In this document: positions 4,309 to 63,324 of the stretch, in pieces | Layout of the letters: the number at the start of each line of letters is the position of its first letter | Position numbering within the stretch: position 1 is the first letter of the stretch | Origin: Candidatus Peregrinibacteria bacterium | GTDB taxonomy: Bacteria > Patescibacteriota > Gracilibacteria > UM-FILTER-43-11 > JACRIE01 | Assembly: GCA_016220165.1 (NCBI GenBank) | Contig: JACRIE010000042.1 | Location: forward strand, 20,379-84,378 | Direction: 5' to 3' | DNA length: 64,000 nucleotides | Notes under the pieces: generated by a model | What the model was told of the DNA's origin: nothing | The model's database searches: none | Seen by the model: the letters and a program-made list of their open reading frames with translations, nothing else | Translations under genes and position numbers: made by a program

Positions 4309-4370
4309 AATTGGAATTCCTTATTCGAATCTTGTAATCTTTGAATAAATAATCTTGTAATAATAAACCT

Positions 4371-4967
4371 ATGAAAAAAGAAATCGCTCTCGCCCTTCAC
4401 GAAATCGGCGCCGTGAAGTTTGGCAATTTTACGCTAAAATCCGGCATTCAATCTCCCATTTATATCGATTTACGCGTCCTCATCTCCTACCCGAAAGTGC
4501 TTCAGATGGTCGCGGACGCTATGATCGAAAAGGCCGAAAAACTCACGTTCGCCCGCATCGCCGGCATCCCCTACACCGCGCTCCCGATCGCCACGGCCAT
4601 TTCGATCAAGACCGGCTGGCCCATGATTTACGCGCGCAAGGAAGTGAAGGACTACGGCACCAAAAAAAAGCTCGAGGGTGTCTACAAAAAGGGTGAAACC
4701 TGTCTCATCGTCGATGATTTAATCACGACCGGCGCCAGCAAATTCGAGACAATCGAGCCTTTTCAGGCCGCGGGGCTCACCGTGAAAGACGTGGTGGTCC
4801 TCGTGGACCGCGAGCAGGGCGGCGCCAAAATTCTAAAAGAAAAAGGCTACACGCTTCACAGCGTCTTGGGCATCAATGAGCTTTTGGACATGCTCAAAGC
4901 CGAAGGTCGCCTCGACGAAACTCTCTACAAAACCGCCAAGGAATTCATCGCGAAGACGCAGGTGTAA
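4371..4967 (+). CDS. pyrE: orotate phosphoribosyltransferase
   Basis: PRPP-binding motif CLIVDDLITTGASK; length and overall pattern match PyrE. Confidence 0.85.
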   Translation: MKKEIALALHEIGAVKFGNFTLKSGIQSPIYIDLRVLISYPKVLQMVADAMIEKAEKLTFARIAGIPYTALPIATAISIKTGWPMIYARKEVKDYGTKKKLEGVYKKGETCLIVDDLITTGASKFETIEPFQAAGLTVKDVVVLVDREQGGAKILKEKGYTLHSVLGINELLDMLKAEGRLDETLYKTAKEFIAKTQV

Positions 4968-9677: not shown

Positions 9678-9930
9678 GTAGGGCCTCGCTGACCTGATTC
9701 GAAGGCGGTAAAAATAATGTACCGTGAACCAGACGAAGCCAAACAGAGAATGGTGACTAATCATCTCGAACCTGGGCTGAGTTTTGGTTTTTGTTTTCGT
9801 CCTTCCAAGACGTACTCTTTGGCGTTGTGTTTGTATTTTTGTTTTTATATAAAAATGACACAACAGAATAAATGGGGTTGAGCTTATACGAGTCAGGTAA
9901 AGCTGCATCACCAAGCCTAGGGGCTGGATA

Positions 9931-10030
9931 GCGACGAGTGACAAGTGACGAGTTAATCTTTCTCGTCTCTCGTCACTATTTCTTCGTCTCTCGTCACTAT
10001 TTCTTCGTCTCTCGTCACACGTCACTATAC
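9931..10030. repeat. CGTCAC-family repeat: inverted arm plus about 2.8 tandem 21-nt units
   Basis: GCGACGAGTGACAAGTGACGAG (9931-9952) is followed by TCGTCTCTCGTCACTATTTCT repeated at 9963, 9984 and 10005. It is enclosed by the stem AAGCCTAGGGGC / GGCCTCTAGGCTT. Confidence 0.85.
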
Positions 10031-10214: not shown

Positions 10215-10352
10215 GTTATTTGTATAGACTAAAAATAATACTATGTCTTAATACGATTTGCGTTTGAATTTATCGCTAATCGATCAACGCTAATCGCCAA
10301 TCGAATCTGTTGGAAATTGTAAACTAATCTTGTAATCTTGTAATAATTAATA

Positions 10353-13179: not shown

Positions 13180-13348
13180 AGTCCGTAGTCAGTGGCAACG
13201 TAGTCCGTAGTTAAATTCAAATAAGAACTACAGACTACCAAACTACTGACTACGGACTAATTATACTTTATTTTCCAGCCAAAAAATGCTATAATATTTA
13301 GATTAAAGTTAATTTAAACCTTAAATCCTTAACCTTAAATCCTGCATC

Positions 13349-15749: not shown

Positions 15750-16235
15750 ATGCCCACACTCGCCCCCAGCATCATCGCGATTCCCGAGCTCCTGGCCAAA
15801 ATCCAGTCGAGTCTGATGGGCGATGAGCAGAAAAAGGCGCTCCTCGACGTCCTGCCCCGCGCCACGGAAACGGATCGCGCGCAGATCCTGGCGCTCATCG
15901 ACAAATCGAACGCCGAGGCAGAAGGGATTCAGAAGGACTATGAAGTACACGTCGGCGACATCAACATGAAATATAAACAGAAATTGGACGAACTGGTGCG
16001 TGTGAAAACCCGCCGCGCGCGTGAAACCTTCGAGACCATGGACGAAGAAAAGAAGGTGCAGACCATGATGACGCTCGAGCAGGAACTGCAAAACGTAAAA
16101 GACGCTCCGCTAACGAGCGCCGTCCCGACCCTCGCGCATCACACTTCTCGTCACTCGTCACTCGTCGCTCTCATATTCTTCCTCATCCTCGGCCTCCTGG
16201 CCTTCGGCGCCTGGCTGGCGCTAAAAATGCTCTAA
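15750..16235 (+). CDS. hypothetical C-terminally membrane-anchored protein
   Basis: 161-aa ORF with C-terminal TM helix (LVALIFFLILGLLAFGAWLAL). The segment just before the TM helix (TSRHSSLVAL) is encoded by a CGTCAC-family repeat. Confidence 0.55.
   Translation: MPTLAPSIIAIPELLAKIQSSLMGDEQKKALLDVLPRATETDRAQILALIDKSNAEAEGIQKDYEVHVGDINMKYKQKLDELVRVKTRRARETFETMDEEKKVQTMMTLEQELQNVKDAPLTSAVPTLAHHTSRHSSLVALIFFLILGLLAFGAWLALKML
16147..16170. repeat. CGTCAC-family repeat inside a CDS
   Basis: CTCGTCACTCGTCACTCGTCGCTC. Confidence 0.7.
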
Positions 16236-16278
16236 CAATTACTAATTTCCAATTTCTAATATCCAACAAAAAAATCTA

Positions 16279-16662: not shown

Positions 16663-16728
16663 TTTTTTTAGACATTAAAATTTTGCATTCATTTTGTTAG
16701 AAATTAGTAATTAGACATTCTGCATTTT

Positions 16729-19357: not shown

Positions 19358-19440
19358 TTCCCTCTCTGTGTAGAGAGGGATTAAGGGTGAGTTTCTCTTC
19401 TTCCCTCTCTGGGTAGAGAGGGGGTTAGGGGGTGAGTTTC
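19358..19440. repeat. two tandem CCCTCTC..GAGAGGG hairpin units
   Basis: TTCCCTCTCTGTGTAGAGAGGGATTAAGGGTGAGTTTC and TTCCCTCTCTGGGTAGAGAGGGGGTTAGGGGGTGAGTTTC, between tyrS and DUF559. A third copy lies at 34070-34101. Confidence 0.8.
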
Positions 19441-20609
19441 TACACCACTCTCGCCCACTTCCTTTTCCCGGCCTGAATCACCATGCCGGCTTTGAGGCGA
19501 ATGATGGCTTTGGGATCGGTCGCTTTTGAGTTGTCGATTTTCACGCCGCCCTGCTCGATGAGACGCCGGCCTTCCGATTTCGTTTCGGCCAGCTTGCAGA
19601 GGAGGAGGAGGTCCGTGAGTTCACGGTCGCCGTTAAGTTTGAATTCGGGAATTTCATCCGGCAACCCCTTCTTCTGAAATATTTCGATAAACTCCCTCTC
19701 GGCCGCGTCAGCCTCTGGCTTGGAGTGATACATCGTGACGAGTTCGCGCGCCAAGCGCACCTTGGCATCGCGCGGGTTTCCGCCGGATTTCATATGGGCA
19801 TCGATCGCATCGATTTCTTTGAGCGACACGTCCGTGCACAGGATGAAATACTTGATGATTACATTGTCCGCCATGGACATAATCTTGCCGAACATGTCCC
19901 CGGGCGCGTCCGTGAGATTAATCGTGTTGTTATATGTCTTGCTCATCTTTCGGCCGTCCGTGCCTTCAATGAGCGGTGTCGTCAGCACGAATTTTTCCTT
20001 ATTTTTAAGCGCGCGAAGCAATGTGCGTCCGGCCATCATGTTGAAGAGTTGGTCGTTCCCGCCGATCTCGCAATCCACCTCGAGCATCACGGAATCATAC
20101 CCCTGCATCAGAGGATAAAGGAACTCATTTGGGGACAGCGGTTCTTCCGCCTTCAGACGCTTCTGGAACATGTCGCGCTGGAGCATTTGCTGGACTGTGA
20201 AATAACTGCCCAATTTCATGACCTCATCGAGCCTCAATTTCTCAAGCCATTCGTGGTTATAAACGATCTTAACTTTGTTGAAATCAAGGACTTTGGCGGC
20301 CTGTTTCTTGTACGTTTTGAAATTCTCCTCCACCTGCTCGCGTGTGAGCGGCTGGCGCGTCGCGTCGCGGCCCGTCGGGTCGCCGATCATGGCCGTGTAA
20401 CTGCCGATCAAAAAAATCACGTGATGCCCGTGCTCGGCAAAATCGCGGAGTTTGCGAAGTGGAATTGTGTGCCCCAAATGCAGCTGCGAGCCGGTCGGGT
20501 CAATGCCGAAATACACGCGCAATTTCTTGCCGGAAGCGATTCTCGCATGAGCGAGTTCCTGCGGCATCAGTTGTTCCACCCCGCGGGTAAGTAGTTCGTT
20601 GATTTGCAT
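19440..20609 (-). CDS. tyrS: tyrosine--tRNA ligase
   Basis: Class I motifs HLGH and KMSKT; C-terminal S4-like domain (GRRLIEQGGVKIDN). Confidence 0.9.
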   Translation of the reverse strand: MQINELLTRGVEQLMPQELAHARIASGKKLRVYFGIDPTGSQLHLGHTIPLRKLRDFAEHGHHVIFLIGSYTAMIGDPTGRDATRQPLTREQVEENFKTYKKQAAKVLDFNKVKIVYNHEWLEKLRLDEVMKLGSYFTVQQMLQRDMFQKRLKAEEPLSPNEFLYPLMQGYDSVMLEVDCEIGGNDQLFNMMAGRTLLRALKNKEKFVLTTPLIEGTDGRKMSKTYNNTINLTDAPGDMFGKIMSMADNVIIKYFILCTDVSLKEIDAIDAHMKSGGNPRDAKVRLARELVTMYHSKPEADAAEREFIEIFQKKGLPDEIPEFKLNGDRELTDLLLLCKLAETKSEGRRLIEQGGVKIDNSKATDPKAIIRLKAGMVIQAGKRKWARVV

Positions 20610-20710
20610 GATTATTTATTACAAGATTCATTATTACAAGATTACAAAATTAAATACAAATCTTAATGATCTTAGTAATCTTGTAATTTTGAATAAATAA
20701 TCTTGTAATA

Positions 20711-20738
20711 AAGGAATAATCGCGCGCGATTATTCCTT
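20711..20738 (-). terminator. 28-nt perfect palindrome overlapping the nadK stop
   Basis: AAGGAATAATCGCGCGCGATTATTCCTT; the nadK stop (20730-20732) lies inside it. Confidence 0.45.
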
Positions 20739-21730: not shown

Positions 21731-22891
21731 TTAAGGATTCTGGATCACTTCCAAAATCCTCTGCGCCGTCTTCCCCCAGCTAAAATTCTTCACCTGCTCA
21801 AAGCCTTTACTTCGCAATTCTTTCCAATGGGATTCGTTATCCAGCACTTGCGTAATGCCGTCCGCGATGTCGATCGGATCCGTGGGATCGATATAGTGCA
21901 CCGCGTCCATACCCAACTCGGGGATCGAGGAGACCTTGGAGGCCACCACGGGCGCGCCGCTCTGCATCGCTTCTAAAACAGGAAGGCCAAACCCTTCATA
22001 AAAAGAGGGAAAAAGAAAAAGGGTGGCGCCCTGCATCAGGGCGACAAGTTCCTTCTCCGGTAGATATTCCAAAAAAGTGACACGATCCTGTAGTCCCAGC
22101 TTCTGGACTATCGCCTTAATCTTATTGAAATAAGCGCCCTGTTTTCCGCAAATCACAAGGCGATACTTTTTTTGATTGGCCGGACTCAATAGGTGATACG
22201 CTCTCAGGACGCCTATGACGTTCTTGCGCGGTTCCAAAGCGCCCGTCATCATTAAATAAGGCTCTTCAATCCCATACTGTTTTTGAAGACGTCGAATCTC
22301 CTCCGGAGGCACGGAGCCAAAAAAGATTTCCTGGACGCCCGCGTACACCACCGTAATCTTGTCTTGGAGCGGAAGATCCGGATATTGATTGAGCAGATCA
22401 CGGCGGGTATAAGAAGAAACCGTAAAAATCCATCGGGATTTTTGAACCGCCTTCTTGAGGGTGAGCTTTTCAATCCACTGGGCTTTTTTCTGATGCCGGA
22501 TCCCTGGTTTGAAAGCGATCATGTCATGAACCGCCAGTCCCACATGAAGGCGTCGCGGATCGTGCAAAAAAGGAACGATATAACTTTCAGTGGCTACCAA
22601 CGTGTCAACGCGTTCCCTGAGAAGCGAACGATAAAAACGCCAATGCCACAAGGGGCCCCATCCGCGCAGACGAACCACTCTGACATTCGGACGGTTCTGA
22701 TAAAGAGGAGGGCATTCAGCATTGGTATACAGCAAATACTCATTCGTGGTGTCGTGAAAGAGGATACTTTTGAGGACATTCGCCGTCCATACACCCTTAC
22801 CCCCCTTTTCACCCGCGATACCGCGGATATCAAACGCGATTTTCATAAAAATTGTGAATACTGAGCTTGTCGAAGGGTCAAAATTCGCCAA
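21731..22891 (-). CDS. glycosyltransferase family 4 (GT-B fold)
   Basis: C-terminal EGFGLPVLEAMQSGAPVVAS motif. Confidence 0.8.
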   Translation of the reverse strand: MANFDPSTSSVFTIFMKIAFDIRGIAGEKGGKGVWTANVLKSILFHDTTNEYLLYTNAECPPLYQNRPNVRVVRLRGWGPLWHWRFYRSLLRERVDTLVATESYIVPFLHDPRRLHVGLAVHDMIAFKPGIRHQKKAQWIEKLTLKKAVQKSRWIFTVSSYTRRDLLNQYPDLPLQDKITVVYAGVQEIFFGSVPPEEIRRLQKQYGIEEPYLMMTGALEPRKNVIGVLRAYHLLSPANQKKYRLVICGKQGAYFNKIKAIVQKLGLQDRVTFLEYLPEKELVALMQGATLFLFPSFYEGFGLPVLEAMQSGAPVVASKVSSIPELGMDAVHYIDPTDPIDIADGITQVLDNESHWKELRSKGFEQVKNFSWGKTAQRILEVIQNP

Positions 22892-23008
22892 AACGGATTA
22901 TATCATATATAATACGCTCAACACATGACACATGACATCTGACAATAAGCCAAAAAATGTATTTCAAAAAGTTAGGTGTCAAATGTCAAATGTCAATTGT
23001 CAAGTGTT

Positions 23009-23031
23009 AAAATTTTATCTGATAAAATTTT
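23009..23031 (+). promoter_or_regulatory. 23-nt A/T palindrome 3 nt upstream of ATG
   Basis: AAAATTTTATCTGATAAAATTTT, then act, then ATG. Confidence 0.6.
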
Positions 23032-23034
23032 ACT

Positions 23035-24135
23035 ATGAGCCTAAGACGCATTAAACACAGCCTTTTGCGTTTAAGCGCGGAAGAAAAAATAGTGGGAATT
23101 GGATGTCTCGTCACGCTCTTAAGCCTTTTTTTTCCTTGGTATTCGACCACCTTTTTATCCAGCCAAAAAAGCCTCATTGAAAATGGGCTTTCCGGAGATT
23201 TGGGGGTGATCGGGTTTGTCGTTTTTATTATGACGTTGATCGCGGGGCTATATCTGGTAGCGGAGAATCTCCGCGTTCGTCTCCCTTATTTTGGTCTCCC
23301 CAAACAAAAAATTGTTTTGTTTATCATGGGAGAAGCCTCTTTCCTGATGCTCCTCCTGATCGCGGTCTACACCAAGCGCTCCCTGGGTTTCACGAACGCG
23401 GAACTGCGATTCGGAATTTATTCCGCCTTTATAGGAACCATCGCCAGCACGCTCGCCATGATCAGCGCGCTGCAAAAACGACAACGGGAAGAAACGCGCG
23501 CTTTTTTTGATCATCCGGAAGAATCCGATCCCGTAGAGACGCAAAATCTTGCGTCTAAAAAACCCGAACCCCTATTGGATCCCGAACCGCAAAATGACAA
23601 CATTTCTTCCGTAGAAACGCGACATGTCGCGTCTTCTGATGTCCCTCACAAAATCCCCACGGCGCAACTCGACGAAAACGAATTGGAAGAAGATCTATTC
23701 CGTGTAAAAAAGCCCACCGAAACCATTAGTCGAAGTGCCAGCGCTGAGCGTAGTCGAAGTACCAGTACTGAGCGTAGTCGAAGTATTGACATTGAATCTT
23801 ATAAAGAACGTTACCAAGTTCCGGAAACAGATGTAGGGGCTGGACATGTCCAGCCCGAAAGATCCGACATTGTAGAGACGCGCCTGCCCACCGTAGCGGG
23901 AGCGAAGGAGGGCCAAGGCGCGTCTGAAAAAGAAACCACCGTATCTCCCACCGCCACCGACGACAACGAGGAATTCTTCACGCTCAAAGAATCTGAACCC
24001 CTGGAAGAAATGCCCATAAACGAGACAGAGAACGACAAAGAAAAACCGATTAGGATTGAAGAAATCCGAATCGATGAAATTAAAGAAAAAATCAGCGACA
24101 AAAAAGGATCCCCTGGCGGATTCTACGAAGATTAA
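23035..24135 (+). CDS. hypothetical membrane protein with acidic, repeat-derived C-terminal tail
   Basis: Four TM helices in the first 150 aa. The tail contains three VETx..AS palindrome-encoded segments and a tandem ERSRS repeat. Confidence 0.6.
   Translation: MSLRRIKHSLLRLSAEEKIVGIGCLVTLLSLFFPWYSTTFLSSQKSLIENGLSGDLGVIGFVVFIMTLIAGLYLVAENLRVRLPYFGLPKQKIVLFIMGEASFLMLLLIAVYTKRSLGFTNAELRFGIYSAFIGTIASTLAMISALQKRQREETRAFFDHPEESDPVETQNLASKKPEPLLDPEPQNDNISSVETRHVASSDVPHKIPTAQLDENELEEDLFRVKKPTETISRSASAERSRSTSTERSRSIDIESYKERYQVPETDVGAGHVQPERSDIVETRLPTVAGAKEGQGASEKETTVSPTATDDNEEFFTLKESEPLEEMPINETENDKEKPIRIEEIRIDEIKEKISDKKGSPGGFYED
23537..23556. repeat. GAGACGC-family palindrome in CDS
   Basis: AGACGCAAaatcTTGCGTCT encodes (V)ETQNLAS. 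Confidence 0.75.
23613..23637. repeat. GAGACGC-family palindrome in CDS
   Basis: AGAAACGCGACATGTCGCGTCTTCT encodes (V)ETRHVASS. Confidence 0.7.
23876..23925. repeat. GAGACGCG-family palindrome with 32-nt interior, in CDS
   Basis: AGACGCGCC...GGCGCGTCT encodes (V)ETRLPTVAGAKEGQGAS. Confidence 0.7.
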
Positions 24136-24245
24136 TTTAGCGGGTAGCAATTAGCGGCTAGTAACTAGTCAGATTCTGGCTAACCGCTAAAAGCTAACCG
24201 CTAACCGCTAAATTTACCTTGTCATCCTTAAAAAATAATTCTAAA

Positions 24246-40197: not shown

Positions 40198-40351
40198 TTT
40201 TTATCATTGACAAATCGATAAACTCATTGTCAATAGTGAGTCAATTCGAACTATTGACAAATTAATAATTTTATGGTAATTTATTAACCTTTCTCCGGAC
40301 ACTCAAAAACCAAAAAGCAAAAACCAAACGGATACGTTAACTAAGCCACGT

Positions 40352-42155: not shown

Positions 42156-44051
42156 TTATTTTACAGTGACCGATTTCGCCAAATTCCGAGGCATGTCGGG
42201 ATCCAGTCCGCGAAGTACGCTCAGATAATAAGCCAGCAATTGAATTGGGATAATGTTGACGAGGGGCGACGCAACGCCCACATCGGGGACGTGGATCCAT
42301 TCGTCAAAAACATCATGTCGCTCCGGACTCACGCCGATAATATAGGCGCCGCGGGCTTTGAGTTCCATTGTGTTGCTGAGCACATCCTCGCGGACTTCAT
42401 CGTTCGCCACAAAGGCGATGCAGGGCGTCCCATGGCTGACAAGCGCGATGGGGCCGTGCTTGAGTTCGCCAGCCGCGAACCCCTCGGCATGAATATAGGA
42501 AACTTCCTGGATCTTGATCGCCGATTCCAAGGCCATGGGGTAATTTTCAGCTTTGCCGATGATATATAAATTATTATGCTCGCGGATGAGTTGCGCGATT
42601 TCTTTAATATAAACCAGGAAGCGCGGATTGAGCATATCATTGATCTTTGAGGCCACTTCCGCCAGGAGCCGCCGGCCTTCCTGAAGGCGTTCTGTCATGG
42701 CGTAAGCGATGAGAAGCAAGAGCGTCATCTGGGATGTGGCCGCTTTAGTGGATGCCACCGCCTTCTCCGGACCGGCGTTGATCAAAAGCGAGGTGTCCGA
42801 TTGCCGCGCGATAGTGCTGCCAGCCACGTTGACAATCGAAAGCACGCGGGCTTTCTTCTTTTTCGCAGCCTCCATGGCTTCCAGCACATCCGCAGTTTCG
42901 CCGCTTTGGGAAATCACGACGAGCAAACTCTCGGGGCGCAGAAAATGATGATACACGGGAAATTCAGAAGCCGGAGCGTAATTCACATGACGCTGGGCGA
43001 TGATCGAAAAAAAGTATTCGCCGGCCATGCACACCTTGCCGGCCGTGCCGCAACCGGAAAAAAAACATCCGCGCGATTCGCGGATCGTCTGGGCGATTTT
43101 GAGGATATCTTCGTCACTCTGATCAATCGCGCGAAGAATCGTCGCCTTCTGTTCCATGATCTCCTTGAGCATGTAGTGATCATATTCCCCTTTCTCGGCC
43201 GATTCCGCTTTCCAGTCGATATTAACGAGACGTTTTTGGATCGGCTGACTTGTTTCAATATTTAAAAAATGCAGCGACGAGTGGTCAGTGACGAATTTTT
43301 CTTTCTCGTCTCTCGCCTGCCCCGAGCTTGGTCGAGAGGTCTCTCGTCTCTTGCTACTCGTCACTCGCCTGCCCCGAGCTTGGTCGAGGGGTCTCTCGTC
43401 ACTAGCCTCCCCATCTATGATCACCATCTCATTATCATCCAGATACATCACCTCCTGCGTGTATTCAAGAAACGCGGGAATATCCGACGCCACAAAATGT
43501 TCGTCTTGACCGATACCAACGATCAAAGGGCATCCGCACCGGGCCGCGATCAGCTGATGGGTGCCCACATTGATCGCCACAATGGCGTAACGCCCCTTAA
43601 GGCGGCGAAGAGCGGCTAAGACTGCCTCCTGAAAATTCATGGTTTTCCGATAACGCGCGATGAGCTGCGGAATCACCTCGGTATCCGTCTGAGAAATAAA
43701 ATACTCACGCCCCAATTCGTCGCGGATTTCCTTATAATTCTCAATAATCCCGTTCTGAACGACCGCCACGGTTTTGTCGCCGCTGAAATGAGGATGCGCG
43801 TTGATATCCGTGACGCCGCCATGCGTGGCCCAGCGCGTGTGACCGATCACCAAAGAGGCGGAGGTATTCTTAAAAATCTTCGTATCGATCCCGGAAATCT
43901 TGCCCACATGCTTCTCGACAAAAAGCTCACCGCCCCTGTCTGCGGCCACTCCCCACGAATCGTATCCGCGGTATTCCAATTTTTTAAGCCCGTCAACCAC
44001 GAGTTCGAGACCATTCGTCCGCGGCCCTATGTAACCGAAAATTCCGCACAT
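42156..44051 (-). CDS. glmS: glutamine--fructose-6-phosphate aminotransferase (isomerizing), with a 44-aa repeat-derived insertion
   Basis: N-terminal MCGIFGY nucleophile, two SIS domains, C-terminal PRNLAKSVTVK. Confidence 0.9.
   Translation of the reverse strand: MCGIFGYIGPRTNGLELVVDGLKKLEYRGYDSWGVAADRGGELFVEKHVGKISGIDTKIFKNTSASLVIGHTRWATHGGVTDINAHPHFSGDKTVAVVQNGIIENYKEIRDELGREYFISQTDTEVIPQLIARYRKTMNFQEAVLAALRRLKGRYAIVAINVGTHQLIAARCGCPLIVGIGQDEHFVASDIPAFLEYTQEVMYLDDNEMVIIDGEASDERPLDQARGRRVTSSKRRETSRPSSGQARDEKEKFVTDHSSLHFLNIETSQPIQKRLVNIDWKAESAEKGEYDHYMLKEIMEQKATILRAIDQSDEDILKIAQTIRESRGCFFSGCGTAGKVCMAGEYFFSIIAQRHVNYAPASEFPVYHHFLRPESLLVVISQSGETADVLEAMEAAKKKKARVLSIVNVAGSTIARQSDTSLLINAGPEKAVASTKAATSQMTLLLLIAYAMTERLQEGRRLLAEVASKINDMLNPRFLVYIKEIAQLIREHNNLYIIGKAENYPMALESAIKIQEVSYIHAEGFAAGELKHGPIALVSHGTPCIAFVANDEVREDVLSNTMELKARGAYIIGVSPERHDVFDEWIHVPDVGVASPLVNIIPIQLLAYYLSVLRGLDPDMPRNLAKSVTVK
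43275..43406. repeat. CGTCAC-family element, two tandem units plus inverted arm, in frame in glmS
   Basis: CTCGTCTCTCGCCTGCCCCGAGCTTGGTCGAGAGGTCTCTCGTC and CTCGTCACTCGCCTGCCCCGAGCTTGGTCGAGGGGTCTCTCGTCAC, preceded by CGACGAGTGGTCAGTGACGA. Confidence 0.85.
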
Positions 44052-44077: not shown

Positions 44078-44140
44078 CACACCTGACAACTGACATCTGA
44101 CACCTGACTTTTCTTTTTTATTTTAATTTTTTGTCAGATG

Positions 44141-48038: not shown

Positions 48039-48088
48039 CTCGTCTCTCGTCACTCGTCACTAGTCACTCGTCTCTCGTCACTCGTCTC
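48039..48088. repeat. CGTCAC-family repeat covering the VirD4-like gene stop
   Basis: CTCGTCTCTCGTCACTCGTCACTAGTCACTCGTCTCTCGTCACTCGTCTC supplies the last residues RRVTRDE and the stop. Confidence 0.8.
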
Positions 48089-50787
48089 TTCTTCGGTCTA
48101 TCTATCAGCCCCTTCTCCCCGCGATCCAATCCTCGCACAGGCGCTTCGTCGTCTTCGCGTCGTCCGCTCTCGCTCCAGCGCTTGATCTTGTCTTCCACTT
48201 CCTCGCGCGGACGCGCGTAGCGTTCGCGGGAAAGGCGGATGATTTTGTCGCGGCGGCCCTCCTCGATCACCAAATCCGGTGGCGCGAGCGTGGCCACGGA
48301 AAACGTCTTGCTGGGCATACCGTCGATGAGGAGCTTGGTGTACGCGTGGTACTTCGGGAGCGTCACGATGTCGTTCGGCAGGACCTCTTCTGAGAATTGA
48401 TTGGAGAAATACTCGGCGTCGTCGAAGCCCACCTGGAAGCAGATGCTCGTACCCACGTTGCCGAACACCGCGTCGCGCACCTCTTCGGACATCTGTTCAA
48501 TGTACTGGTTCGCCATGGTAAGATTGAGTTTGTATTTTCGTGCTTCTGAGAGAATTGTGGCAAACGAATCCGTGGCGAAATTCTGAAATTCATCCACGTA
48601 GAGATAGAAATCCGTGCGCTTATTCGCGACCACGTCCGAGCGGCTCATGGCGTCCAGTTGGAATTTGGTGATCAGCATGGAACCGAGCAGCGATGAGTTA
48701 TCTTCGCCGATCTTGCCCTTAGAAAGGTTCACGATAATGATCTTGTTCGTATCCATCATGAAGCGCACGTTCATGGTCGATTTCGACTGCCCCACGATAT
48801 TGCGGACCATGGGGGACGAGAGGAACTGCCCGACCTTATTTTGGATAGGTGAAATCGCTTCGGTGCGGAATTTGGGCTCCATCTTGCCAAACTCATCTAG
48901 CCAGAAACTCTTCACCATGGGATTTTCGATCGTGTTCACGACCTTACGGCGGTAGTCGTCATCCACCAGGATGCGCATGATGCCGAGCATGCTGGCCCCG
49001 GGGAATTCCGTGAGGGCGAGAATAGTGTTGCGGAGGATGTGTTCAAGGCGCGGTCCCCAGCTTTCCGCGTACATCTTTTTAAAAACACCGAGCAATCCGG
49101 AAGCGATGAGTCCGCGATGCTCCGGCGTGCCGATCGAGGACTCGAGCATGTTGAAAGCGATCGGATACCCCGTGTCCGATGGATCGATGATCACCACATC
49201 ATTCGTCCGGTGCGCCGGCACAAAGTCGATCATGCGTTCCGCCAGATCGCCGTGAGGATCGATCACGGCCACGCCCTTGCCGCGCAGGATGTCGGACTGA
49301 ACCATGTTTTCAAGCAGGGTCGATTTGCCCATACCCGTTTTTCCGATGATGTAGATGTGACGCCGACGATCCGTATCGCGGATGCCGAATCTCTGTTTAA
49401 TTCCGCGAAAAGACGATGTCCCGAGTAACGTGAATTCGCTGGCGGGCACCTGCCCTTCGCGGGGCAGATTATGCGGCGGCTCCAGCTTGCGCGACATCAC
49501 CCATAAAACATTGGAAGCGGGCGTGCTCCCTTCGGACACCTGTGGCAGATGGAAAATCGTTGCCAACTCCTCCACGTTCATCACCATCGTCGCGGTCACC
49601 ACCGCGCGCTTGAGATACCGACGGAATACGGAACGATTATGCTCATTCACGCGGGCGATTTTAAAACCATTGAGGCTGGGAAGATTGAATTGCTTGAAAC
49701 TACCGGCGATCTCTTTAATTTTTACCTCCGCGTGAGGTAGATTTTCCGGATATGCCAGATACACTATGCGGATATTGGCATCAAAGGAAAGCTGGGTCAC
49801 TTTATCCACGCCGGCCGCGATCGGATCTTCGCGGTCGTGGGTACGGGACACATGCTCGTCCATGTCTTTGTCGTCCGAATCCTGGGCGCTCTGCATTTCA
49901 AGAATGCTCAGCCCTTTGCCGCGGATAGCCCAAAAAAAGACGTATAACGGACTAAAAAACAGCCGTTTCCAAAATCCACGGACGAGATAAATACGGGTCG
50001 CTAACGTCTCAAGCCAAAAAATACCGCGGAACAATCCGCGATTTACTAGGCGGAGACACTTAATCCCGCGCTTGCGCCACCAGTCCCCCAACGGCTGGAT
50101 CGTGATTTGGATCCACGCCTGCTCATCCTGAGCGCTCAATTTAGAAAGAGTCGCGATAATGCCGGACAATGGTTCCGTCGCGAGACGCGTCAGCTTATCT
50201 TCGAATTGAGCGAAACGCTTGATAGGATAAACCTGAGGCTCGGTGAATTTTAATTCCGCAGTAATAGGCTGTGGGCGCGCTAAGGGCGCGCCGGAATATT
50301 TCACGGGCAAATGCTCCGAACCTTTTACTTCTTTTTTTTGTACAGGCAGTTTCTTCTCCTGAGTCATGTCGAAGGAACGAACTGCGTCTCCTCCCCCGCC
50401 AAAGGGACCCGTATAATCCTTCATCTCTTCGATTTCCACATCCGGATACTGGGCATAAATCTGGCTCTCCACCACAATCTTAAACCGTCGCGGCATCCAG
50501 ATAAAAAATTGGATAAGCCCATCCACGGACGCGATTTCAAAACTCAATCGCGGCTGTTGGAAACCGGACAAATACCGCCACAAGGACCATTCCTCATGAA
50601 GACCGTGCAACGCGGCGAATACCTGCTCCATCACAATCGGTCCCTTTTCATTCAACTTAGAAACCGAAACACGAATGAGACAGGAATCCTGTTGCCGCTC
50701 ATACCGGCTCCGTTGCGCGCTCAAAAATAACAAAAAAAGGAAGTAAGCGAGGAGGATCCCTGCGGCAACGAATAACCACAACGTCAT
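48064..50787 (-). CDS. VirD4/TraG-like type IV coupling-protein-family ATPase with large N-terminal membrane-anchored domain
   Basis: N-terminal TM helix, Walker A GKTGMGKST, Walker B-like DFYLYVDEFQNF. The C-terminal half has the TraG/TraD-type layout. Confidence 0.7.
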   Translation of the reverse strand: MTLWLFVAAGILLAYFLFLLFLSAQRSRYERQQDSCLIRVSVSKLNEKGPIVMEQVFAALHGLHEEWSLWRYLSGFQQPRLSFEIASVDGLIQFFIWMPRRFKIVVESQIYAQYPDVEIEEMKDYTGPFGGGGDAVRSFDMTQEKKLPVQKKEVKGSEHLPVKYSGAPLARPQPITAELKFTEPQVYPIKRFAQFEDKLTRLATEPLSGIIATLSKLSAQDEQAWIQITIQPLGDWWRKRGIKCLRLVNRGLFRGIFWLETLATRIYLVRGFWKRLFFSPLYVFFWAIRGKGLSILEMQSAQDSDDKDMDEHVSRTHDREDPIAAGVDKVTQLSFDANIRIVYLAYPENLPHAEVKIKEIAGSFKQFNLPSLNGFKIARVNEHNRSVFRRYLKRAVVTATMVMNVEELATIFHLPQVSEGSTPASNVLWVMSRKLEPPHNLPREGQVPASEFTLLGTSSFRGIKQRFGIRDTDRRRHIYIIGKTGMGKSTLLENMVQSDILRGKGVAVIDPHGDLAERMIDFVPAHRTNDVVIIDPSDTGYPIAFNMLESSIGTPEHRGLIASGLLGVFKKMYAESWGPRLEHILRNTILALTEFPGASMLGIMRILVDDDYRRKVVNTIENPMVKSFWLDEFGKMEPKFRTEAISPIQNKVGQFLSSPMVRNIVGQSKSTMNVRFMMDTNKIIIVNLSKGKIGEDNSSLLGSMLITKFQLDAMSRSDVVANKRTDFYLYVDEFQNFATDSFATILSEARKYKLNLTMANQYIEQMSEEVRDAVFGNVGTSICFQVGFDDAEYFSNQFSEEVLPNDIVTLPKYHAYTKLLIDGMPSKTFSVATLAPPDLVIEEGRRDKIIRLSRERYARPREEVEDKIKRWSESGRREDDEAPVRGLDRGEKGLIDRPKKRRVTRDE

Positions 50788-50831
50788 TTCTATTTTTTAA
50801 GTTCGTGGGTATTGTATTACGTTTTTTGCAT

Positions 50832-50890
50832 CTCGTCACTCGCAACTCGCCTGTCCGTCCGAAGCGTCCGCGCGAAGGCAGGTCACTTCT
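50832..50890. repeat. CGTCAC-family repeat (variant hairpin core) between the VirD4-like start and the nfo stop
   Basis: CTCGTCACTCGCAACTCGCCTGTCCGTCCGAAGCGTCCGCGCGAAGGCAGGTCACTTCT; the nfo stop (50883-50885) lies inside it. Confidence 0.75.
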
Positions 50891-55776: not shown

Positions 55777-55797
55777 AAATCTCTAATCTCAAATCTA

Positions 55798-55826
55798 AAT
55801 ATAGTGAACATTTGTTCAAAAATCAA
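55798..55826 (-). promoter_or_regulatory. promoter with LexA-type box in the spacer (ORF6N gene)
   Basis: Minus strand reads TTGATT, spacer tTTGAACAAATGTTCAC, TATATT. GAAC-ATTT-GTTC is at 55806-55817. Confidence 0.5.
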
Positions 55827-57936: not shown

Positions 57937-59594
57937 TCAGTAGACCTCTTTTAAATAGCACTCCTCGCACAAAATTTGCCTAAACTCCGTCGGATCCAGG
58001 GGGGTGGCGATCTCTTTTTTGCAATGAGCGCATAAAATGAGCCGCATCGTCTTTTGATTATGAAGGGCTAAGCGATCGCGATAACGACAGAAAGGACATA
58101 AACGAGGCAAAGGAATTGGAGCCTCCTGATAAAATTTAAACTCCTGAGCTATGATGCGGTAATTCTTTGAGCAATCCGAACAAGTCAAAATCTGATCCAG
58201 GATAGAACGATCCGTGTCGTGAATATCGTCTGGCAAAAAGACTGTTTCAGGAAAGTCTTGATGCTGGGATGTTGCAGGAGGCGACTGCCACTTCCAGCCA
58301 TTTTTAACGACCTCTTCTTTCGTCATCGGATAATCATAAAAAGAGACAGTATCGTTATAACCGAATAACAAAATCGAAAGGGGAAAAAATTCACCGTACT
58401 CGCCGTCCGCCAGCATCTTGGCTTTAATTCTTGGAACAAGCGCCTCGTAATCACTTTTTGAATACGATTGATTCAAAATACAATATTGATCTCCTTTGAG
58501 TCCGACACAACCGAAACAATGGTCGCATTGTTTACAGGAATTGCAGTACTCCACGTCGTGCGAACCCCAGCAATAACGCGAAAACTTGACGTTGTAAGAC
58601 TCAATCCCCGAGTTAGTGGTTTCATAAAGCAGGGTGGCATTACGCCCCGCCGTATTCGAATCGTAGCAATCTTTGGCGCCGCGCCAGACATGTTCGCCGT
58701 AAGCGCAGTCCTCGGCATCGTAGCAATGAAATACCTGGCGGCAATTCTTGGCATTCCGAATATAATCGCCGCTACAGCCTTCGGCATTTTCGATTTGCAG
58801 ATGTTTACGGGGCTGTGTTTTAAAAAAACATGAAATTGTTTTTTCAGCATTTGAATTACATCATGGCTCCCAAACTTCAATTTTTCGAGCTCCTGAAAAT
58901 AGGCGTCTTTGGAATACGGTTTATTAAAAATATAGAATTGTTTATTCCTCAGGTTCGCCGAAAACAAGCAGTGGTCGCAGTCCACACATTGATCCAGAAA
59001 CCACGAATCGCTGCAATTGGAACAATTTCGTGAAAAATGCAGACGATAACAATTAAAACAATGATTCGCCTCGTAACAACGTTCGCATTCATGAAGATAA
59101 CTGCAATCGATACAGTCCTTGGACTTTTGGATCCAGTAGCAAAAAAATGAATCCTCGCAATTGCTGCTTTCGCTGATCAGATAGCAATTGCGGCAATGGG
59201 CTGTCGATTCACAATAATCGCAATTCTCGTTGCCCGTACCGACGATGCCAAGCTGGGGCGCCGCATGCATCAAAGCATCGAACTGACTAAAAAATGAGCG
59301 GTTGAAATCATACGCACGTCCAGGGGCACGGCAATCGCGATCCTCTGCGCACCAGCAGGATTGGCAATAAATCACATAATCGCTTTCTTTTGGAAGCGTG
59401 GACACAAAATCCTGTCCGCAGCGATCGCACGGCCGCCGGTAAAACGCGTAATCATTGATATGTCCGTGACGCCGCATATGGCGGCAGCGAGGGCACCACG
59501 TCGGTTCCGGTACGTCCATTTTTTGATAAAACTGACGATCGGCATCGATCACCTCGAACGATGATAAACACTGGGAACATGATTTCATTGACAT
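57937..59594 (-). CDS. Cys-rich multi-zinc-ribbon protein, paralogue 2, interrupted by a -1 frameshift at U UUU UUA
   Basis: ORF 58473..59594 stops resembling paralogue 1 after ..KKQFHVFLK. The -1 frame then reads TQPRKHLQIENAEGCSGDYIRNAKNCRQVFHCYDAEDCAYGEHVW.. and runs into ORF 57937..58554. The total of 1658 nt equals 3n+2. Confidence 0.7.
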
Positions 59595-59642
59595 TAAAAA
59601 ACTTTTAAATTATACTTTAAATGTACACTTAAATTTATCTTC

Positions 59643-59906
59643 ATGAGTACGCTTATTAGCATCAAAGATCTCAGGACGTCGCTTTCGTCAGTCGCCGACG
59701 CCGTAGCGCAGGGTGAAAGTTTCCTCGTCATGCGGCATTCCAGACCGGCTTTTAAAGTCGAACCCCTAAAAGAGGAGGAGGAGGAAACCATGGACATGTA
59801 TGGCTGGAAAACCATTGTTGATTTTACGGAGGGGGGAAAAAAGAAAGGAATTGCAGCAAAAAAATTATTGAAGATCATGCGCGAATTTGAGAAAAAATAT
59901 GGATAA
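59643..59906 (+). CDS. Phd/YefM-family antitoxin
   Basis: ISIKDLRTSLSSVADAVAQGESFLVMRHSRPAFKVEPL. Confidence 0.65.
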   Translation: MSTLISIKDLRTSLSSVADAVAQGESFLVMRHSRPAFKVEPLKEEEEETMDMYGWKTIVDFTEGGKKKGIAAKKLLKIMREFEKKYG

Positions 59907-60141
59907 AATTTTAAAATTTTTAAAAAAAAGAAGAAAAAGAGAGAGATTGCTGCTTATGGCGTCTTTAGAATTAATAGAGCGCGATGAGCTACTTAATTTT
60001 GATATAAAAAAGCTGAAAGGATTTGATAGAAGATATAGGGCCAGAGTTGGTAAATTTCGTATAATATTTGAAAAGGGTGGAAGAAAATTAAATAGGATCA
60101 TCAAAGTGGACGAAAGAAACGAACAAACCTATAAATTTTAA
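59899..60141 (+). CDS. RelE/ParE-superfamily toxin
   Basis: KKLKGFDRRYRARVGKFRIIFEKGGRKLNRIIKVDERNEQTY; overlaps the antitoxin stop. The listed ORF begins at TTG 59887. Confidence 0.6.
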   Translation: MDKILKFLKKRRKRERLLLMASLELIERDELLNFDIKKLKGFDRRYRARVGKFRIIFEKGGRKLNRIIKVDERNEQTYKF

Positions 60142-60202: not shown

Positions 60203-61318
60203 ATGAAAGTCGCCATTGTTCATGAACTACTGGTGAAACTCGGCGGCGCGGAACGCGTCGTAAAAAAGCTGTGCGACATGTTTCCTCAAGCGCCCATCTA
60301 CACGCTCATCCACAATCCCGACAAAACGAAGGAATGGTTCCGTGGCAAAAAAATCATCACGTCCTCCATTCAAAAATATTATGATTTCTATGCGAATCAT
60401 CGCATTTTGTTGCCAAAAATGGCGCGCGCCATCGAAGCGTTTGATTTTAACGAATATGACCTCGTCATTTCCAGCAGCTCCGCTTTTGCCCACGGCATCA
60501 AAACACGACCTCAGACCAAACATTTGTGCTACTGCCACTCCCCCATGCGCTACGCGTGGGATTACACGCACCAATACACGGGCAATATGAATCGGATCAG
60601 TCGCGTATTCGCGGCCATGGCGCTCCATAAAATTCGCCTATGGGATTACGAAACGTCGAGCCGCCCAGCCATAGTTCTCGCGAATTCAAAACACGTTCAA
60701 AAACGGATCGAAAAATACTGGCGGCGCGCGTCCGAAGTCGTCTATCCGCCCGTGAATGTAACGCGCTTTGAAGTTCACCCTGGCCACGAAAACTATTTTC
60801 TGATCGTGTCAGCGCTCACGGCTTTTAAACATCTTGAACTGGCCGTGGAGGCATTCAATCAAAACGGCCATCATTTGATCATTATTGGAGAAGGGCCGGA
60901 ATACTGGCGGCTTAAGGGCATGGCGAAAGAAAACGTCGAACTCCTGGGGCGAAAATCGGACAAAATGATCAAAGAATACATGGAACACTGTCGCGCTTTC
61001 ATTTTTCCGGGAGAGGAAGACTTCGGTATCACGCCGGTGGAGGCCATGGCCGCGGGAAAACCGGTGCTTGCCTACGGAAAAGGCGGCTGCCTGGAAAGCG
61101 TACAGGCAAGCATCAGTGGCGAATTTTTCAATGAATTAACCTCTGAAAACCTCAATGAGGGATTGAAAAAACTGCTGAGAAACGAAAAAAAATATGATCC
61201 GCAGGCCATCCGAAAAATCGCGGAGCAACTTGACGAATCCATCTTCGAAAAAACTATTCAGGAAACAATCTCGTCACTCGCCTGCACCGAGCTCTGTCGA
61301 GGGGTCACTATTTCTTAA
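60203..61318 (+). CDS. glycosyltransferase family 4 (GT-B fold) with repeat-derived C-terminal tail
   Basis: [19 protein letters not shown] motif. The last 15 aa ([15 protein letters not shown]) are encoded by a CGTCAC-family element. Confidence 0.8.
61270..61315. repeat. CGTCAC-family repeat in which two convergent genes terminate
   Basis: CTCGTCACTCGCCTGCACCGAGCTCTGTCGAGGGGTCACTATTTCT. Confidence 0.8.
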
Positions 61319-61751: not shown

Positions 61752-61857
61752 ATTGAATACGATTAGCGATTAATGATTAGCGATTCGCGACCGAATTTTC
61801 TTGCGCTAATCGATCAACGCTAATCTCAAATCGAAATAAAAGCGTGGCAATTTTAAA

Positions 61858-63324
61858 CTATTTTTTACGCCGAGGCAAGGACTTTTTTTGAAGAGGAACA
61901 GGTCTTTTAATCGATTGTTGTTTAAAGGGAGAAAGGGGAAAAACAGATCGTAGTAAAAAAAGAAGAATAAGAAGCGCGGTCACTCCTATTAAAGCCCAAA
62001 CCACCCATCCGCGACGTGCTGTCACCAAAAGGCTCGTGGTTTGCGACTCTTTTTGGTTATCCGTAGCCTTTAAAAAAACTTTATAGACTCCCGGCTTGGA
62101 ATAACGATGATCGACAACCACGCCCTCCGCTTTTACGCCGTCCCCAAAATCCCAAAAATAATTCGTGATAATTCCATCGGGATCTTTGGATTTAAGGGCG
62201 TTGAAAGTAATAGAACGAGGGTTTATTGTTGACTGAGTGGGCTCAATCACAGGAAGGGGAGCCTTATTGTTATTATTCGGATCCGCGTTATCCCCAAGGC
62301 CGTCATGATCCGTGTCTTTCCATTCTTTGGGATCCAGCGAGAACGCGTCTTCTTTATCATTCACGCCATCGCTATCCGTATCCGCCAACAAAGGATTGGT
62401 GCCCTGCTGAATCTCCATATTGTCTCCAAGGCCGTCATGATCCGTGTCTTTCCATTCTTTGGGATCCAGCGGGAACGCGTCTTCTTTATCATTCACGCCA
62501 TCGCTATCCGTATCCGCCAACAAAGGATTGATGCCTTTTTGAACTTCAACAACGTCAGGAATACCATCCTTATCCGCATCTTTTTCTGCATTGTCTCCAA
62601 TGCCGTTATGATTCTCATCCGCCCATTCCTTCGGATCCGTAGGAAATGCATCCTGGACGTCCGGAACTCCGTCATTATCGTCATCTAAATCAGCATTATC
62701 ACCGATCCCATCTCCATCCGTGTCCTTCCACTCTTTAGGATTGAATGGGAACGCGTCTTGGGCATTGAGAATCCCGTCGCCGTCGATATCAGGGTCGTGG
62801 CGATTCCCGATGCCATCACCATCCAGGTCATTGTCAACAAAAATAGTGATTCGAACCTTATTGTTGTCGGTATTATCGCCAGTGGTAACTGTAGGTTTGA
62901 CGCGAATGGCAATCGTATGAGCTCCTGTGCGATCGGGAGTCCAATCAACAAACACATCATCCGTCTTTCCTCCAACTACGGAAATAGGTTGGTCGGTTCC
63001 GATATATTCCACTGTTAATTCATCATAAAAACGCACGACGCCGGTCAAATCCGCTTTCCCGCCGTTGTGGACAACACCATAAATGCGAACGGTTTGGTTT
63101 AAAATAACGTCATCTTTTAAAAGACGTATGTCCTCCTCCTTGAGATAGAGATCGTTGGCAAAATTAGAATTATCCGCGGCAAGAACTGGCTTCGTATAAA
63201 CATCGGTCACTTCGAGATCAGCCGTTTGGGCATACAGCGTAATAACCGCTCCTGTAAAAATATCGATAAAAAAGGAAAAAGACAGGAGCCCTAATGTATA
63301 AAAAAGAGTATTACGAAGCCTCAT
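61858..63324 (-). CDS. cell-surface protein with thrombospondin type-3 (calcium-binding) repeats, PKD-like domain and C-terminal TM anchor
   Basis: Signal/TM N-terminus, many DxDxDGxxDxxD repeats, WDFGDG (PKD-like) and a C-terminal hydrophobic helix followed by basic residues. Confidence 0.75.
   Translation of the reverse strand: MRLRNTLFYTLGLLSFSFFIDIFTGAVITLYAQTADLEVTDVYTKPVLAADNSNFANDLYLKEEDIRLLKDDVILNQTVRIYGVVHNGGKADLTGVVRFYDELTVEYIGTDQPISVVGGKTDDVFVDWTPDRTGAHTIAIRVKPTVTTGDNTDNNKVRITIFVDNDLDGDGIGNRHDPDIDGDGILNAQDAFPFNPKEWKDTDGDGIGDNADLDDDNDGVPDVQDAFPTDPKEWADENHNGIGDNAEKDADKDGIPDVVEVQKGINPLLADTDSDGVNDKEDAFPLDPKEWKDTDHDGLGDNMEIQQGTNPLLADTDSDGVNDKEDAFSLDPKEWKDTDHDGLGDNADPNNNNKAPLPVIEPTQSTINPRSITFNALKSKDPDGIITNYFWDFGDGVKAEGVVVDHRYSKPGVYKVFLKATDNQKESQTTSLLVTARRGWVVWALIGVTALLILLFLLRSVFPLSPFKQQSIKRPVPLQKKSLPRRKK
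62292..62530. repeat. near-identical 132-nt tandem duplication inside the TSP3-repeat gene
   Basis: CCAAGGCCGTCATGATCCGTGTCTTTCC... recurs with a 132-nt (44-codon) offset and only a few substitutions. Confidence 0.85.

Follow-up and report, generated by a model that had tools for sequence, protein, structure and literature searches.

Introduction

The Rickettsia palindromic elements (RPE) are repeats of about 100–150 bp which insert into genes in frame, at positions that tolerate them (Ogata et al. 2000, reviewed in PMC10969869). The present work deals with repeats built on the heptamer CTCGTCW in a 64 kb window (the whole stretch of DNA analysed, to which all copy counts refer) of the chromosome of a Candidatus Peregrinibacteria bacterium, a member of the candidate phyla radiation (CPR). 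The likeness to RPE lies in the inverted-repeat character, in the occurrence in spacers and in frame in unrelated housekeeping genes, to which a hydrophilic peptide is added, in a reading frame and a (here predicted) fold that are left intact, and in the fact that no transposase is known for either. In-frame insertion with the open reading frame (ORF) retained was found in glmS (+132 nt, +44 aa) and, by comparison with one orthologue, in a VirD4-like gene (+39 aa). The host, however, is a CPR bacterium and not a Rickettsia; the copies consist of 7-nt units with a nested 24-nt hairpin, whereas RPE are a unique 150-bp sequence; their structure is very variable (24 to 132 nt); and all of them share one orientation. 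The relation to RPE is regarded as one of analogy only and not of membership.

The REP sequences and REPINs (PMC3116915) resemble the hairpin core of the present elements, which is an imperfect palindrome of 20–35 nt whose centre is conserved and whose stem covaries, in structure and in being non-autonomous, and in other organisms this core also forms singlets and inverted doublets. REPs are extragenic and usually species-specific, whereas five of the nine loci in the window overlap coding sequence and a 16-nt core centre is common to loci from several phyla. Inverted doublets were not seen in the window, where all seven cores lie on the plus strand; no GTAG head was seen, and no RAYT gene was found within the window. 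[quoted passage not shown] CTCGTCACT), and can fuse to ORFs or provide parts of promoters and terminators. In the elements described here, by contrast, no target-site duplication was found, the internal structure is strongly variable, no parent insertion sequence with matching ends is present in the window, and metagenome scans for the arm module gave no match. On these sequence features the elements appear to be MITE-like only in part.

The small dispersed repeats (SDR) of the Nostocaceae reportedly are units of about 21–27 nt with hairpin potential that lie within other repeats, tandem heptamers among them, whose sequence runs on in phase on both sides; they are said to be reported only from Nostocaceae and to differ in sequence. 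The 24-nt unit nested in a heptamer array (CTC/24 nt/GTCW) is like the SDR in this respect, but here the hairpin travels with its heptamer host and enters coding sequence. The cyanobacterial STRR, which Mazel et al. are said to have described in 1990, are reportedly heptanucleotide tandem repeats. With heptanucleotide repeats in general (STRR, LSSR, TAACTGA) the present arrays share tandem 7-nt units in 2–9 copies, a chromosome-wide occurrence across distant phyla, and one strand open in all frames with stops in the other, and several dispersed head-to-tail arrays of period 7 were indeed detected in the window with Tandem Repeats Finder (TRF). Those repeats, in contrast, are described as elements of intergenic regions or leaders that have neither an inverted arm nor a nested hairpin, and we know of no reported in-frame insertion of them into conserved enzymes with empty sites in relatives. 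The original work on SDR (Elhai et al. 2008, Genome Res 18:1484) is cited in PMC3116915, PMC5861425 and PMC2884548.

Results and Discussion

Copies in the Window

The window is ordinary chromosome, carrying recA, dnaB, recG, tyrS, glmS, the L31 gene, a gyrA fragment and transketolase, with 12.5% of intergenic DNA, and the best matches of GlmS, of a GT4 glycosyltransferase and of other window proteins are from Candidatus Peregrinibacteria or Patescibacteria. The repeats are held, as the rather probable reading, to be a lineage-specific family of small non-autonomous insertion elements of the RPE/MITE/REP kind in this chromosome, because the copies share non-repetitive modules, occupy sites that are empty in relatives, and point one way.

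A preliminary description, made from the sequence, had listed a repeat family at six sites (sites 1 to 6 below), and all six hold the sequence as described. The word CTCGTCWCTCGTC, with at most one mismatch, gave 17 matches versus 0.12 expected, a number reached in none of 100 shuffles; all 17 fall within the six sites, and all but two, which belong to the inverted arm at 9933-9952, are on the plus strand. The double word attributed to every site is present at most of them, but at 50832 and 61270 one perfect heptamer is followed by CTCGC.. instead. Six loci also proved to be an undercount. The core motif derived from the inserts, C[CT]GAG[CT]-N2-3-GTCGA[AG][AG] (that is, CYGAGY-N2-3-GTCGARR), was found seven times on the plus strand and never on the minus strand (0.03 expected per strand), and it adds three loci, 22861, 23727-23785 (cores at 23744 and 23768) and 50359, to give about nine in total. 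The features are as follows:

Site 1, 9930-10029, plus strand: intergenic; arm AGCGACGAGTGACAAGTGACGAG at 9930-9952 and spacer TTAATCTTT at 9953-9961.
Site 1 array, plus strand: nine heptamers, (CTCGTCT CTCGTCA CTATTTC) x3, finishing CACGTCA CTATA; 21-nt unit by TRF.
Site 2, 16147-16170, plus strand: 3.4 heptamers (CTCGTCA CTCGTCA CTCGTCG CTC), in frame as SRHSSLVA in an orphan ORF, 15750-16235.
Stand-alone core, 22854-22888, plus strand: cross-phylum canonical form CTGAGCTTGTCGAAGG at 22861-22876, in a divergent intergenic region.
Core array, 23727-23785, plus strand: 24-nt tandem repeat of 2.5 copies, variant CTGAGCGTAGTCGAAGTACCAG(C/T)A, in frame as SASAERSRSTSTERSRS in ORF 23035-24135.
Site 3, 43272-43403, plus strand: 132-nt composite in frame in glmS (42156-44051, minus strand).
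Site 3 parts: arm 43273-43294; spacer 43295-43304; heptamers; inserts 43315-43338 and 43367-43390, each flanked by CTC and GTCT; final CTCGTCACT.
Site 4, 48039-48088, plus strand: seven heptamers between convergent genes, supplying the end of a VirD4/DUF87-like gene (48064-50787, minus strand).
VirD4-like insert, 50272-50388 (boundaries approximate), plus strand: 117 nt/39 aa in frame; core variant CTGAGTCATGTCGAAG at 50359-50374.
Site 5, 50832-50890, plus strand: intergenic; CTCGTCA CTCGCAA CTC, a 33-nt hairpin GCCTGTCCGTCCGAAGCGTCCGCGCGAAGGCAG at 50849-50881, then GTCA CTTCTT.
Site 6, 61270-61318, plus strand: CTCGTCA CTC, a 24-nt hairpin GCCTGCACCGAGCTCTGTCGAGGG at 61280-61303, then GTCA CTATTTCT TAA.
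Site 6 context: 3' end of the GT4 glycosyltransferase gene (60203-61318), overlapping the end of the convergent L31 gene.

Occurrence in non-coding DNA, in frame within genes and across stop codons, as proposed earlier, is thus seen in all three forms. The orphan ORF of site 2, for which a homologue search found none, encodes ...HHTSRHSSLVALIFFLILGLLAFGAWLALKML followed by the stop, and the array residues directly precede a hydrophobic helix, in agreement with the peptide before a transmembrane helix that had been pointed out.

Insertion in glmS

The copy in glmS is the strongest evidence that the copies are insertions. GlmS has 631 aa here versus 586–595 aa for the full-length homologues among the 119 listed, none of which shows the 132-nt/44-aa copy. 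Alignment with eight relatives left one gap of exactly 44 columns in all eight (aa 217–260), between ..VIIDGEA and HFLNIETSQ.., which corresponds to window positions 43272-43403, the composite element itself; E. coli GlmS aligns on either side of the insert and not through it. The comparison with empty sites in relatives that had been suggested at the outset was therefore positive for this gene. In the antisense direction one of the three frames of the element is free of stops, and this is the one that glmS reads. In an AlphaFold (AF2) model built from 39 sequences, with a mean predicted local distance difference test (pLDDT) score of 81.5, residues 216–256 of the insert had pLDDT below 50 and no secondary structure, between two confident strands, 208–213 and 260–264, the remainder of the protein being modelled with confidence. 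The model predicts the insert to be a disordered loop at a beta-hairpin turn, and its position, a surface loop, to be compatible with the fold.

From four related Peregrinibacteria genomes about 67 kb of sequence was compared, which contains orthologues of glmS, of the GT4 and L31 genes and of the VirD4-like gene; neither CTCGTCW arrays nor hairpin cores were found in it.

Assembly error had been named as a result that would speak against the family, and repeats can mislead assemblers; moreover, the glmS copy was seen on one contig only. Independent assemblies were available as Logan contigs from run SRR12113407, in which the sequence of site 2 (contig L001) and that of site 6 (contig L121) are the same as in the window, and since they are unchanged there, assembly error is excluded for these two sites. 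The glmS insert, exactly 132 nt long, leaves the reading frame intact and has uninterrupted conserved codons on either side, and other copies are embedded within intact ORFs. An assembly or low-complexity artefact is on these grounds hardly credible as an explanation of the family.

VirD4-like and GT4 Genes

The VirD4/DUF87-like protein has 907 aa, versus 838 aa in its closest orthologue (L123, 64% identity). An internal insert of 39 aa, bearing the core at 50359, is gapped in the alignment with this orthologue, the one relative compared, and 50272-50388 is taken, with moderate confidence from this alignment, to be an element-bearing insert. The site 4 array, in its reverse complement, encodes the last residues, ..KKRRVTRDE, and provides the TGA stop codon; the orthologue ends about 27 aa earlier. 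In the GT4 glycosyltransferase the last 15 residues and the stop codon derive from site 6. Relatives of this protein end in ...IQQSIKQVMN or similar before the stop, whereas the window protein has a different, element-derived C-terminus, site 6 having replaced the native one.

Two further observations concern the VirD4-like gene. Within its 39-aa insert lies a GC palindrome, GGCGCGC TAAGG GCGCGCC (50272-50300), adjoining a T-rich stretch and the core copy; this region may represent a composite element of another kind. The reverse complement of site 5 (50811-50839, minus strand) contains a -35-like GTGACG, 17 nt, and TACAAT, a weak promoter-like match (9/12) about 25 nt upstream of the gene start (50787), and the site 5 element may contribute a -35 box to this gene.

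Anatomy of the Element

The full unit, present at sites 1 and 3, is composed of an inverted heptamer arm of the form AGCGACGAGTG-N3-AGTGACGA(G/A), a T-rich spacer of nine bases, a (CTCGTCW)n array and the tail CACTATTTCT. The arm is an optional module, sites 2, 4, 5 and 6 being without it. Optional too are the hairpin modules, one or two of 24–33 nt (GCCTG...CYGAGY-N2-3-GTCGARG) within one heptamer of the array, with a constant junction at which the heptamer is split as CTC^GTCW. The 24-nt insert GCCTGC(C/A)CCGAGCT(T/C)(G/T)GTCGAG(A/G)G is found at 43315-43338, 43367-43390 and 61280-61303, and the 33-nt variant at site 5. The long variants thus consist of a heptamer array plus a 24- or 33-nt hairpin at one fixed heptamer point, which agrees with the modular build-up proposed previously, and both internal GC-rich cores quoted for them are present.

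By BLAST the first 42–43 nt of sites 1 and 3 are 86% identical, sites 3 and 6 match over 37 nt (92% identity) and the two halves of site 3 match each other over 44 nt (95% identity); these matches connect the copies as the dispersed family that had been claimed. The tail CACTATTTCT is common to sites 1 and 6. Period-7 arrays were reported by TRF at 9961-10016, 16147-16170 and 48039-48086. At site 1, described as an inverted arm followed by 21-nt tandem units, TRF recovered the tandem at 9959-10018 (2.9 copies, 97% matches), with the 7-mer arm at 9933-9953. Sites 1 and 3 have terminal inverted repeats, starting with AGCGACGAG and finishing with CTCGTCACT or CGTCACT. When site 1 was folded as DNA the arm paired with the array (z = -2.7 on the plus and -3.2 on the minus strand). 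The array has no stop in any of the three frames of its plus strand; its complement has TGA in every frame unless a T variant occurs.

These data bear on the possibility that no mobility is involved and that a favoured heptamer slipped locally at each locus, the similarity of the copies being convergent. Heptamer arrays are the commonest class of long simple repeats in bacteria (Mrazek 2007, summarised in PMC4679880), the window is rich in other heptamer arrays, and both the length of the array, which varies by site, and the secondary 21-nt periodicity of site 1 are in line with slippage. Slippage cannot, however, make the non-repetitive arm and spacer shared by sites 1 and 3 (42 nt, 86%), the 24-nt hairpin with its junctions shared by sites 3 and 6 (92%) or the tail CACTATTTCT of sites 1 and 6; it would not yield a 132-nt composite at one glmS codon boundary, and it leaves the single orientation unexplained. 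Slippage as the sole origin of the copies is considered improbable.

Orientation and Replication

The nine independent loci (9930, 16147, 22861, 23727, 43272, 48039, 50359, 50832 and 61270) are all in one orientation (two-sided sign test, p = 0.004, our own arithmetic), while the genes touched by the elements lie on both strands. Sites 3 and 5 run against the direction of transcription and sites 2, 4 and 6 along it; therefore the bias refers to the chromosome and not to transcription. The GC skew is negative in all 2-kb bins but one (58001-60000) and its cumulative curve descends from one end of the window to the other, in accordance with a position within a single replichore.

Nine loci on one strand, in a window with a nearly uniform negative GC skew, could also represent a polar signal of chromosome architecture, like KOPS or Chi, read directionally by a replication or segregation machine. 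Known signals of this type are 8-mers that recur every few kb and are tolerated in coding sequence via codon choice, whereas the elements are 24–132 nt long, rare, gene-disrupting, structurally variable and absent from relatives. In addition, the orientation of arrays in other phyla was not linked to the local GC skew (53 negative and 49 positive among 102 loci). A polar signal is accordingly judged very improbable.

Related Sequences in Other Phyla

The sequence (CTCGTCW)3 was found at no fewer than 119 loci, from many phyla, in a species-representative genome set. In IMG/VR it occupies 33 loci, versus 66, 8 and 28 for composition-matched control heptamer arrays. The idea that CTCGTCW arrays are a pan-bacterial family was dropped, control heptamers of like composition being equally common in IMG/VR, and because of this frequency the recurrence of CTCGTCW elsewhere is no evidence of common descent. 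Heptamer arrays form a generic class, in line with the findings of Mrazek 2007 (summarised in PMC4679880), and the control counts are also a point in favour of the slippage explanation discussed above. An inverted, purine-rich arm (TGACGAG)n lies 5' of (CTCGTCA)n in 30 loci and 3' of it in one, and the window copies agree with this polarity, which is identical for the control heptamer CTGCTCW (11 to 0). Examples of loci with this polarity are L005, L006, L026, L045, L085, L107 and L112, and also L281-L346. In Pyrinomonadaceae loci ACTGTTTTT comes after the inverted pair and precedes a start codon, an arrangement that looks like a terminator or leader.

The arrays of other phyla raise a further possibility, namely that selection maintains the repeats for a function in cis, as binding sites or as RNA structures of leaders and trailers (regulatory heptamer repeats, terminators, mRNA stabilisers), and that the in-gene copies are by-products. 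Outside the window CTCGTCW arrays are mostly intergenic, often lie in the sense direction and stop a few bases short of a start codon, or are followed by a T-run, and show the 30-to-1 polarity of the arm; TAACTGA repeats upstream of starts have been proposed as sites of translational regulators (PMC4679880). Within the window, 18 of the 61 genes have a 7–8-nt tandem repeat not more than 60 nt upstream of the start, and the reverse complement of site 5 gives a -35-like box upstream of a gene. On the other hand, no CTCGTCW copy of the window lies directly upstream of a start codon, the mixed orientation to transcription (sites 3 and 5 versus 2, 4 and 6) does not suit such a role, orthologous genes in relatives do without the elements, and regulation leaves the 44-aa insert of GlmS unexplained. 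Nor does any copy score as an intrinsic terminator, terminator scans reporting none at any element, and a terminator role of the window copies was rejected for lack of support from these scans. A regulatory origin is viewed as unlikely.

The hairpin core behaves differently from the heptamer arrays in frequency. The exact 16-mer CTGAGCTTGTCGAAGG (window position 22861) was found at 120 or more IMG/VR loci versus 18 and 30 for two control 16-mers, which corresponds to at least 4–7 times the control frequency, and the flanks of the widespread core are conserved, often as CCGTTCGCC...GGCGAACGG. Covariation was examined in 124 distinct IMG/VR copies at the third stem pair, the first with both bases free of the search pattern. 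It is paired in 90% of copies versus 65% after permutation (T-A 26, C-G 60, T-G 15, G-C 7). These sequence data indicate that the stem covaries and that the core is a REP-like element of wide distribution. In other organisms it is found both in single copies and as inverted doublets, for instance CCGTTCGCCCTGAGCTTGTCGAAGGGCAATGGTTCGACAGGCTCACCACGAACGG in L168.

The canonical hairpin CCGTTCGCC-CTGAGCTTGTCGAAGG-GCGAACGG (loci L128-L247, IMG/VR) is often paired with an inverted partner ..GGTTCGACAGGCTCACCACGAACGG; paired or repeated examples are L168 (2205-2260), L156, L182 and L203, the last a tandem of three copies with 23-nt spacing. By these arrangements the canonical hairpin resembles a family of the REP/REPIN type, and the contigs that bear it come from many environments.

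Nesting of the core in heptamer arrays is real but uncommon. The nested junction CTC/insert/GYCA is common to the window, to a Chloroflexaceae locus (L002, 24 nt) and to a Terriglobia locus (L046, 17 nt), in both of which the host array is CTCG(T/C)CA. Arrays on both sides of the core were found by an automatic test in 4 of 191 distinct cores, of which one (L233) is unconvincing.

No described family was recognised in the preliminary account, and none was found here. Only two tRNAs reach the gathering score of Rfam 15 in the window, with no match to the element; permissive Rfam scans of site 3 and of the canonical doublet gave chance-level matches only, and ten loci from elsewhere gave none. 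The identity of the element as a hammerhead or other ribozyme, a K-turn or a riboswitch was rejected for want of Rfam support. The element sequences and the encoded peptides were not found in searchable open-access full text. The hairpin is apparently uncatalogued, with no match in Rfam 15 or in that text.

Proposed Origin and Spread

Insertion of a non-autonomous element, the reading favoured here, could proceed by copying and inserting the whole unit, or possibly the hairpin alone, with the mobilising function supplied in trans and not encoded in the window. The number of heptamers would then be altered by replication slippage. The single orientation would point to a step tied to single-stranded DNA at the replication fork, as in IS200/IS605 or REP/RAYT; this strand-discriminating step is the weakest link of the explanation because it is based on nine loci in one window. 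Selection would retain harmless copies, in spacers, at gene ends or, where the length is divisible by three, in frame in disordered surface loops. Copies at gene ends would donate a tail and a stop codon, and the glmS loop would tolerate 44 added hydrophilic residues. Survival in spacers, gene ends and tolerant loops would follow from the plus strand of the array being open in all frames and its complement carrying TGA.

Several results weigh against insertion as the origin of the copies. Pfam scans of 50 window ORFs (every ORF of 100 aa or more in a non-overlapping set) found no transposase, Y1_Tnp/RAYT, integrase or reverse transcriptase in the window. No target-site duplication is definable at site 1 (flanks ..CTGGAT / .. 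/ ATACGG) or site 3 (..AAAATGC / .. / AGCCTCC). The folds of the cores and of site 3 are no better than those of shuffled sequences (z from +0.6 to -1.1; -0.8 and -1.1 for the whole site 3 element). The 44-aa insert peptide has no match among 1.84 billion representative proteins in an exhaustive HMMER search, so that additional in-frame copies are not known, and metagenome scans for the 42-nt arm module and for the heptamer-core junction gave none for either, recovering neither additional copies nor sister genomes. No available genome is close enough to show recent insertion or excision, the nearest GlmS being 73% identical, and nine loci on a single replichore do not suffice to establish a link with replication.

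A bolder proposal is that the 24-nt hairpin (GCCTG..CYGAGY-N2-3-GTCGARG) is itself an ultra-small mobile unit across many bacterial phyla, inserting at CTC^GTCW in heptamer arrays and moved by single-stranded-DNA machinery during replication. The CTC^GTCW position of the hairpin is seen here and in Chloroflexota and Acidobacteriota, and movement on single-stranded DNA during replication would account for the single orientation in the window. The proposal is put forward as doubtful. If true, the hairpin would be a pan-bacterial counterpart of the cyanobacterial SDR that in this CPR bacterium has been carried into essential genes.

The genomes of CPR bacteria are small, and to our knowledge these bacteria are not usually discussed as hosts of dispersed repeats. 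In the present case a repeat has found its way into glmS, into the gene of a conjugation-type ATPase and into that of a glycosyltransferase, none of which was destroyed. We know of no clearer parallel outside Rickettsia to in-frame "selfish DNA in protein-coding genes", and such entry would provide a route for new disordered loops and C-termini in streamlined genomes. New is an RPE-like in-frame repeat in CPR, made from a generic heptamer array and a widespread hairpin. The biology of the hairpin core, frequent, with a covarying stem and no match in Rfam or the searchable literature, and its mobilising enzyme are a testable question. Annotators should be warned that peptides read from the elements, and the widespread strings PELVEG, PFDKLR and SLSKG, all three translations of CTGAGCTTGTCGAAGG, are repeat-derived; we presume that they are present in database entries.

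Other Repeats in the Window

Short tandem repeats of period 7–8 in 2–5 copies, whose unit differs almost from gene to gene, lie a few bases upstream of many starts, for example at 4335-4363, 10325-10344, 13314-13343, 16236-16266, 16697-16719, 22977-23011, 24179-24212, 40304-40328, 44079-44108, 55777-55800 and 61760-61790. Among 44 short-period arrays, 27 are in intergenic DNA and 20 are placed not more than 60 nt upstream of a start; 18 of 61 genes have one, as mentioned above. They resemble the TAACTGA leader repeats of Beggiatoaceae (PMC4679880), but the units in the window are heterogeneous. The octamer TAATCTTG is found in tandem and in sense upstream of three genes, with starts at 4371 (plus), 10353 (plus) and 20609 (minus), at positions 4335-4363, 10325-10344, 20618-20652 and 20684-20712; at 20618 the plus strand reads ATTACAAG, so that the unit itself is on the minus strand there.

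Between a DUF559 gene and the 3' end of tyrS, two tandem 43-nt units (19358-19452) each consist of a hairpin (CCCTCTCT GKGT AGAGAGGG) followed by ATTAAGGGTGAGTTTCT; this repeat is unrelated to the CTCGTCW family. The ribosomal protein L31 (61308-61751, minus strand), whose gene overlaps site 6, has 147 aa, with the Pfam domain in residues 1–63 and then a lysine/glutamate-rich tail. Since the L31 of the relative L123 has 159 aa, the extension is a lineage trait and not caused by the repeat. Finally, a 132-nt tandem repeat of 2.2 copies with 86% matches (62294-62583) lies in the gene of a PKD/thrombospondin-type-3 repeat protein (61858-63324) and represents ordinary coding domain repeats.

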